A program made the translations under genes and the position numbers. Below the pieces are notes generated by a model that was not told where the DNA came from, did not search any database, and saw only the letters and a program-made list of their open reading frames with translations. From the sequence record PV340537: DNA of 42,880 bases. One strand, 5' to 3'. This DNA comes from Escherichia phage mEp043. How positions within the stretch are numbered: position 1 is the stretch's first letter; the number at the start of each line of letters is the position of its first letter. This document shows, piece by piece, positions 20,507 to 20,599 of this stretch.

Positions 20507-20557
20507 ATGGACGTTTAGACGTCCAAATTGGTGCGAATCAAGTCGCATTCACGCAAA

Positions 20558-20572
20558 TGATAATCATTATCA
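20558..20572. promoter_or_regulatory. Fur-box-like perfect 7-1-7 palindrome TGATAATcATTATCA (within 23-bp palindrome 20554-20576)
   Basis: Exact match to the Fur inverted-repeat consensus TGATAAT-N-ATTATCA; function here unproven. Confidence 0.4.
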
Positions 20573-20599
20573 TTTGCGGGTCCTCCCGGCAGGGTGGCC

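Follow-up and report, generated by a model that had tools for sequence, protein, structure and literature searches.

The palindrome directly left of the packaging-termination signal cosQ in phage mEp043 most likely represents a genuine Fur site that is separate from cosQ and accessory to packaging. Judged from its sequence, the dyad is predicted to form a high-affinity Fur operator cluster of ~21–27 bp that lies no more than ~55 bp from the end of the packaged chromosome. Whereas the Fur sites at nohA and nohB were known already, the systematic association of such dyads with cosQ and their dispensability are documented here from sequence data.

Layout of the cos region and the palindrome

The window, i.e., the whole stretch of DNA analyzed (42,880 bp), originates from an Aguilavirus-type lambdoid coliphage, and the region addressed here is 100% identical in mEp213 and mEp043 c-1. 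The dyad is located between the last right-arm gene and cos, at the right end of the virion chromosome. The following features were assigned (window coordinates):

20039..20506, plus strand: last right-arm gene, encoding a 155-aa protein similar to phi80 CAA53548; no Pfam family
20552..20578, no strand: putative Fur-box cluster, 27-bp palindrome (based on sequence, chance expectation and conservation over 46 sites)
20555-20575, within the palindrome: 21-mer conserved family-wide, AAATGATAATnATTATCATTT
20578..20584, plus strand: cosQ heptamer GGGTCCT (same heptamer in lambda; invariant in aligned lambda-type cos sites)
20585..20606, plus strand: cosQ-cosN spacer CCCGGCAGGGTGGCCTGCCACG (alignment with the LLS record, which starts at the cohesive end)
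20607..20618, plus strand: cosN cohesive end GGGCGGCGCGCT, 12-nt 5' overhang (annotated in PQ299149 (LLS), 98-99% identical)
20619..20735, plus strand: presumed I2/cosB region, from cosN to terS (analogy with lambda cos; PMC4669245, PMC4856287)
20736..21224, plus strand: terS, small terminase subunit, DUF1441 family (PF07278, E = 8e-42; LLS positions 130-618 map here)
21224..23326, plus strand: terL, large terminase subunit, gpA ATPase and nuclease (PF05876, E = 1e-73; PF20454, E = 1e-83)

The open reading frame for the 155-aa protein stops 46 bp left of the palindrome and is oriented rightward, so that no leftward gene is available beside the mEp043 dyad. Directly after its stop codon, a perfect hairpin (GGACGT-TTAG-ACGTCC, 20509-20524) was observed, which is common to mEp237 and is followed by no T-run. 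The top-strand nick is placed between 20606 and 20607. Since the cohesive end of LLS maps to 20607-20618, the palindrome ends 28 bp left of this nick, in agreement with the distance of ~30 bp upstream of cosN given in the initial annotation. Base 20578 is the last G of the palindrome and at the same time the first G of cosQ. In lambda, the heptamer occupies positions 48473-48479, reportedly the coordinates assigned to cosQ by Wieczorek & Feiss 2001. In the phi80 record, the equivalent part of the sequence bears the label 'cosQ; aka R4 region'. Furthermore, a (TCA)n tract (GTCATCATCATCAAG, 20650-20664) is situated ~45 bp right of the nick and recurs at the same position in VT1-Sakai and in the Klebsiella phage Kp4865-4; it may be a candidate cosB recognition element for small terminases of the DUF1441 type.

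Inspection of the sequence located the previously described 23-bp perfect palindrome CAAATGATAATCATTATCATTTG at 20554-20576; its size had been understated, since perfect symmetry extends over 27 bp from 20552 to 20578 (CGCAAATGATAAT-C-ATTATCATTTGCG, 13-bp arms). This is the longest perfect palindrome of the window, the runners-up featuring 9-bp arms, and ~6e-4 palindromes with 13-bp arms are expected by chance in random sequence of the window's size. Two definitions of the Fur motif were applied, namely the classic 19-bp consensus GATAATGATAATCATTATC and the 7-1-7 motif TGATAATnATTATCA. At 20558-20572, TGATAATCATTATCA (TGATAAT-C-ATTATCA) matches the 7-1-7 consensus in 14 of 14 positions, exactly as had been reported, and, because it is palindromic, scores on both strands. 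No other 7-1-7 match with two or fewer mismatches occurs in the 42,880 bp, and shuffled sequences are expected to contain 0.11 such matches. The dyad also scores 17/19 against the classic Fur box. Read as hexamers (GCAAAT GATAAT C ATTATC ATTTGC), it comprises two perfect units and two matching at 4/6, and contains the at least three GATAAT-like hexamers that characterize Fur operators for overlapping dimers.

Fur binding at the K-12 homologues

The prophages Qin and DLP12 of Escherichia coli K-12 have retained cos together with the same dyad, and Qin equals lambda across the dyad-cos segment. The DLP12 copy reads TGATAATTATTATCA, and the 17-bp core ATGATAATCATTATCA is identical in mEp043, Qin/nohA and lambda. 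Positions given for U00096.2 were shifted by offsets of +777 and +1976, which are presumably the IS insertions distinguishing U00096.3. With these offsets, the coordinates 579824 and 1634624 published by Chen et al. fall on the dyads.

The Fur sites at nohA and nohB/nohD have been catalogued repeatedly (Stojiljkovic 1994 (FURTA); Vassinova & Kozyrev 2000; Chen et al. 2007, PMC2189734). For nohA, an information content of 22.3 bits was reported, an oligonucleotide carrying the site was gel-shifted with 150 nM Fur, and in an in vivo selection for Fur binding, the locus was recovered on one of the Sau3A fragments (PMC2189734). The nohB site of DLP12 was first found by the Fur titration assay on a multicopy plasmid, and its cluster ranks as the third strongest in the E. 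coli genome (25.3 bits, four sites in 28 bp; PMC2189734). By the count of Chen et al., three to four overlapping Fur sites are present per homologue (PMC2189734). Given the identity of its 17-bp core with the Qin/nohA site, which was gel-shifted and selected in vivo, and the titration of Fur by DLP12/nohB, the original proposal of a Fur box is supported for mEp043. Because this core equals that of the gel-shifted site, the mEp043 copy is strongly expected to bind Fur.

Moreover, a ChIP-seq study on FNR counts the Qin site among Fur-repressed loci (PMC3688515). In that anaerobic dataset, a peak summit lies on the Qin dyad (old coordinate 1634625, genome position ~1636600; PMC3688515). The Qin entry indicates that the dyad is accessible in vivo, and that it is occupied or accessible anaerobically too. 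In Table 4 of Chen et al., the microarray reference of McHugh is not credited for the noh sites (PMC2189734), so noh regulation was apparently unseen there. The main text of the Fur ChIP papers among the literature searched does not mention the noh and ynfO loci. In phi80, a 76-aa 'putative Fur-regulated protein' (PHI80_64) is encoded ~900 bp left of cos; it could be assigned to no Pfam family and lacks a homologue in the window, and the cos dyad is the only Fur box in its vicinity.

Conservation and dispensability of the dyad among lambda-type cos sites

The left edge of the palindrome is the exact starting point of BLAST alignments of the window to distant phages. The shared order comprises the dyad, 3-8 bp, GGGTCCT, ~22 bp and ACG/GGGCGG, and the DNA left of the dyad is unrelated between phages. 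A dyad at the same position was found in lambda, phi80, mEp237, VT1-Sakai, Kp4865-4, cdtI, Qin and DLP12, and in degenerate form in N15. In order to sample such sites by cosQ and cosN alone, IMG/VR was scanned with the pattern GGGTCC-N18-28-ACGGGGCGG. Among 83 distinct lambda-type cos sites, 46 carry the dyad with at most three mismatches within 40 bp left of cosQ, compared with a background rate of 0.67% for random 40-mers of the same contigs. Mismatch counts over the cos sites are bimodal, with values of either 0-3 or 5-9. In all 46 sites, the dyad is situated on the packaging-upstream side of cosQ, at a gap of 3-8 bp (mode 6), and nowhere else near cos. A host-range scan of genome contigs was swamped by chance matches in high-GC genomes; among the matches listed, few represented real sites, and the hosts identified for these were Citrobacter and Phytobacter.

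The consensus over the 46 sites is tgcAAATGATAATnATTATCATTT, which the mEp043 copy represents in ideal form. Information is high at positions -7 to -1 and +1 to +6 and low at the center (C 26, T 17, A 2, G 1). Purifying selection is strong on exactly the positions contacted by Fur. Flanking AAA and TTT are kept across the 46 sites, the cosQ-proximal TTT in ~91% as compared with 61-78% for the mirror AAA, which hints at an extra constraint from the cosQ side. Changes in the arms are one-sided in 44 of 47 cases, and one is compensatory; this pattern corresponds to the site of a dimeric DNA-binding protein and not to a hairpin. Invariance of the palindrome in all related cos sites, the pattern set against Fur control in the initial annotation, was not observed: it is present in ~55% and absent or decayed in the rest. 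Half-dyads were also encountered, since one viral contig keeps GATAATCATT followed by unrelated sequence and another keeps the right half; they look like products of decay or recombination joints inside the element. Two MAG contigs, one of them labelled Chromatiales, are identical to the lambda right end through the 12-nt cohesive end and then diverge, which looks like contamination with lambda DNA or chimeric assembly.

The dyad is an element of gain and loss, resides outside the signal recognized by terminase and is dispensable for packaging. The latter follows from Rpp-type PICIs and LLS, which manage without it. In total, 37 of the 83 lambda-type cos sites are devoid of the dyad, and this class includes Rpp-type PICI satellites that keep cosQ and cosN. 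Their island genes encode a primase, an Icd-like protein, an SSB and a capsid protein, and the protein encoded downstream of their cos matches RppC (PDB 6hlk, E = 5e-31). For EcCICFT073, two cos sites with cosQ and cosN were described, and cloned sites were transferred by lambda and phi80 (Fillol-Salom et al. 2019, PMC6739421). LLS, a plaque-former on K-12, shares homology with the window starting exactly at 20578, the break being located between 20577 and 20578. From cosQ rightward, identity amounts to 98.6% through terS and terL and to 97-98.6% over ~9.7 kb of packaging and head genes. Left of cosQ, LLS features unrelated sequence with an intrinsic terminator ~45 bp upstream, and the whole LLS genome lacks a Fur-like box within one mismatch. 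The variable presence of the dyad and the recombination joints on either side of it indicate a discrete accessory cassette of ~27 bp. Near the dyad-less cos sites, compensating Fur boxes did not exceed background. Seven satellite-type contigs were observed to harbor two to three cosQ-cosN units each, often in opposite orientations; upstream of each unit, an intrinsic-terminator hairpin is present, with its T-tail ending 2 bp from cosQ. This multi-cos arrangement is consistent with the published cos1 and cos2 of EcCICFT073.

The suggestion that the palindrome might bind terminase or IHF as a cosQ-like element was not sustained, as cosQ is the adjacent heptamer, an IHF consensus is missing, and the cos sites of PICIs and LLS lack the dyad. 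In lambda-like phages, cosQ is recognized as an invariant GGGTCCT ~24-30 bp left of the nick on which termination depends; this describes the heptamer at 20578-20584 and not the dyad. An assignment of the dyad to cosQ/R4 was likewise rejected, since the heptamer is separate, its spacing from the dyad varies by 5 bp, and PICIs and LLS lack the dyad. In a test for an R site (R4), no 8-mer of the dyad recurred, direct or inverted, in 20619-20740. Moreover, the same dyad occurs in phages with unrelated TerS and cosB, namely those of the lambda Nu1 type and of the DUF1441 type. As a further candidate, an IHF site was dismissed, because the core WATCAANNNNTTR is absent from both strands of 20500-20760. 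An intrinsic terminator was also discarded: the hairpin is AU-rich and followed by GGGUCCUCCC, which contains no U-run, and the terminator scan made no call.

Possible roles of the dyad beside cosQ

In the proposed mechanism, Fe2+-Fur dimers would recognize the 7-bp arms TGATAAT/ATTATCA irrespective of the central base, and AAAT/ATTT quasi-hexamers in the flanks may allow a second and a third overlapping dimer to bind. Since recognition of the arms is ascribed to Fe2+-Fur dimers, occupancy should track iron status, the site being occupied in iron-replete cells and vacated under iron starvation. Bound Fur would occlude the -10-like hexamers inside the dyad (TATCAT and GATAAT, both orientations) and might thereby silence, in iron-replete lysogens, transcription that starts at or crosses the junction between the right-arm accessory genes and cos-terS-terL. 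Occlusion of promoter-like hexamers or of read-through at the accessory-gene/cos junction is the reading tentatively preferred here, and it still has to be regarded as rather doubtful. Where catalogues list the K-12 copies as Fur-repressed nohA and nohB, repression is meant in this way.

The idea that the palindrome places a promoter under iron control found no backing in the sequence: a consensus scan of 19700-21000 yielded no sigma-70-like promoter, and no promoter element is conserved across the 46 homologous sites in either orientation. Rightward, a -10-like TATCAT (+3 to +8) is conserved, but without a -35 element or TGn. Leftward, the reverse complement of cosQ offers AGGACC as -35 and TATCAT serves as -10, at a spacer of 16-18 bp in 41 of 47 sites; this candidate is suggestive in its geometry but scores 3/6 (-35) and 5/6 (-10), and ~60% of the sites have the critical last T of the -10. 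Both a leftward Fur-repressed promoter using AGGACC/TATCAT and a rightward promoter are accordingly weak candidates. Members of the lambda/Qin/DLP12 subgroup have as left neighbor a leftward DUF3950 gene (ylcI/ynfO), which starts ~169 bp from cosQ, whereas the mEp043 subgroup features a rightward open reading frame that ends 33-75 bp away, so that no common regulated gene is evident. The constant closeness of the dyad to cosQ is not accounted for by a purely transcriptional role. The GenBank record of mEp043 annotates a leftward promoter at 20684-20711 on the minus strand (TCGACA-16-TCTAAT), located inside cosB and aimed at cosN and the dyad. Its -10 lacks the A at position 2, and the consensus scan made no call for it.

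Several other roles were considered. Fur bound upstream of cosQ could aid packaging as an accessory 'speed bump' or architectural factor that lengthens the dwell of the motor at cosQ-cosN and improves termination. This explanation, which we consider unlikely, would fit the location of the dyad 3-8 bp from cosQ on the packaging-upstream side in 46 of 46 sites, its independence of flanking genes and the better-kept TTT flank near cosQ (~91% versus 61-78% for the mirror AAA). Moreover, a model proposed for HK97 has termination triggered by a protein roadblock at the downstream cos (PMC10359639). It is nonetheless opposed by LLS and PICIs, whose terminases are the same or related and which terminate packaging in the absence of the dyad, by the 37 dyad-less sites among 83, and by the 5-bp variation in spacing, which shifts the helical phase relative to cosQ. 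Mutagenesis of lambda cosQ reportedly showed a requirement for the 7-bp segment alone, and packaging works in vitro without Fur; both points count against a packaging aid. In its favor, slow-translocating portal and terminase mutants of lambda reportedly suppress cosQ mutations. Recruitment of Fur as a conditional cos component, which would modulate termination as a motor brake or by gating access to cosQ, likewise appears unlikely. If true, packaging efficiency or processivity would be coupled to host iron status, and Fur would join IHF as a second host factor at cos, with its effect on termination and not on initiation. A role as a decoy is improbable as well: as a multi-dimer site, the dyad would titrate Fur at the high phage DNA copy of lytic growth and derepress the iron-starvation regulon of the host in favor of the phage, its adjacency to cos merely reflecting linkage. 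Such a role would require no promoter, and satellites riding on a helper would need no copy of their own. The DLP12 copy was indeed discovered by titrating Fur from a multicopy plasmid, and, ranking third in the genome, the site surpasses most real operators in strength (PMC2189734). On the other hand, no benefit of a decoy is known, the strict adjacency to cosQ would stay unexplained, and many relatives, e.g., LLS, manage without the dyad. By estimate, a single site per genome at ~100-200 copies would sequester just a fraction of the cellular Fur, which also speaks against a decoy.

A still less probable explanation regards the dyad as a transcriptional insulator, at which a Fur roadblock would, in lysogens, keep non-antiterminated right-arm transcription out of cos and the terminase genes. 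Functional equivalence of the dyad to the intrinsic terminator occupying that slot in satellites and LLS is rated just as improbable. Intrinsic terminators within 120 bp upstream of cosQ were found at 13 of 37 dyad-less sites as compared with 6 of 46 dyad-positive ones (Fisher p = 0.02), in a test that is non-independent because the terminator-bearing sites are mostly related satellites. The position of the terminators agrees with this explanation, as the PICI terminator tail lies 2 bp from cosQ and the LLS terminator ~45 bp upstream. However, 24 dyad-less sites feature neither element and the six dyad-positive sites both, and a roadblock that is lost in low iron would be an odd insulator. It is of negligible probability that the dyad acts as a nucleic-acid structure, be it a DNA cruciform or, within the late transcript, an RNA hairpin or terminator. 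The RNA of the mEp043 copy would form a hairpin of 12 bp (-24.9 kcal/mol, z = -4.3), but a U-run is missing, no terminator was called, and with 44 of 47 arm changes one-sided and one compensatory, pairing is not conserved. An RNA or DNA hairpin or terminator is effectively refuted by the near-absence of compensatory changes and the missing U-run.

Comparison with known systems places the dyad beside, and not within, the established cos elements. Lambda features TGATAATCATTATCA at 48452-48466, GGGTCCT at 48473-48479 and the nick at 48502/1, and the standard 238-bp lambda cos fragment of the Feiss laboratory (48446-182) takes in the dyad. Terminase reads the 7 bp of lambda cosQ as a termination signal; the dyad is set apart from it at variable spacing. 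Fur is not mentioned in the cos papers among the literature searched, and no paper linking Fur to cos or terminase function was found there; earlier discussion is possible. With the IHF site I1 in lambda cosB, there is a precedent for cos containing the site of a host protein, but I1 binds a different protein, is located on the opposite side of cosN and has a demonstrated packaging role. With classical Fur operators (fhuF, fepA-fes, iucA and the stx1 promoter), the dyad shares the consensus, the hexamer array for overlapping dimers and the free central base. These operators overlap the -35/-10 region of an iron-regulated gene, whereas neither a conserved promoter nor a common target is evident for the dyad.

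The sites at nohA (Qin) and nohB/nohD (DLP12) resemble the mEp043 locus in their order of an AT-rich 7-1-7 dyad, GGGTCCT, ~22 bp and ACG/GGGCGG..., followed there by a small-terminase gene of the Nu1 type. The mEp043 locus differs in its longer palindrome (27 bp), its presence in an active phage, the cohesive end GGGCGGCGCGCT, a TerS of the DUF1441 type and a rightward open reading frame in place of the leftward DUF3950 gene as left neighbor. The K-12 literature treats the nohA and nohB sites as a noh promoter element and does not discuss cos. Based on the findings presented above, the 'nohA/nohB Fur boxes' of regulon databases represent a phage cos-flank element, and annotation would gain from labelling the dyad as Fur site and the neighboring heptamer as cosQ. 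Next to the packaging-termination signal of lambda and many relatives, purifying selection maintains one of the strongest Fur sites of the E. coli pan-genome. Dyad-bearing mEp213 and mEp043, on the one hand, and dyad-less LLS, on the other, represent natural isogenic-like pairs.
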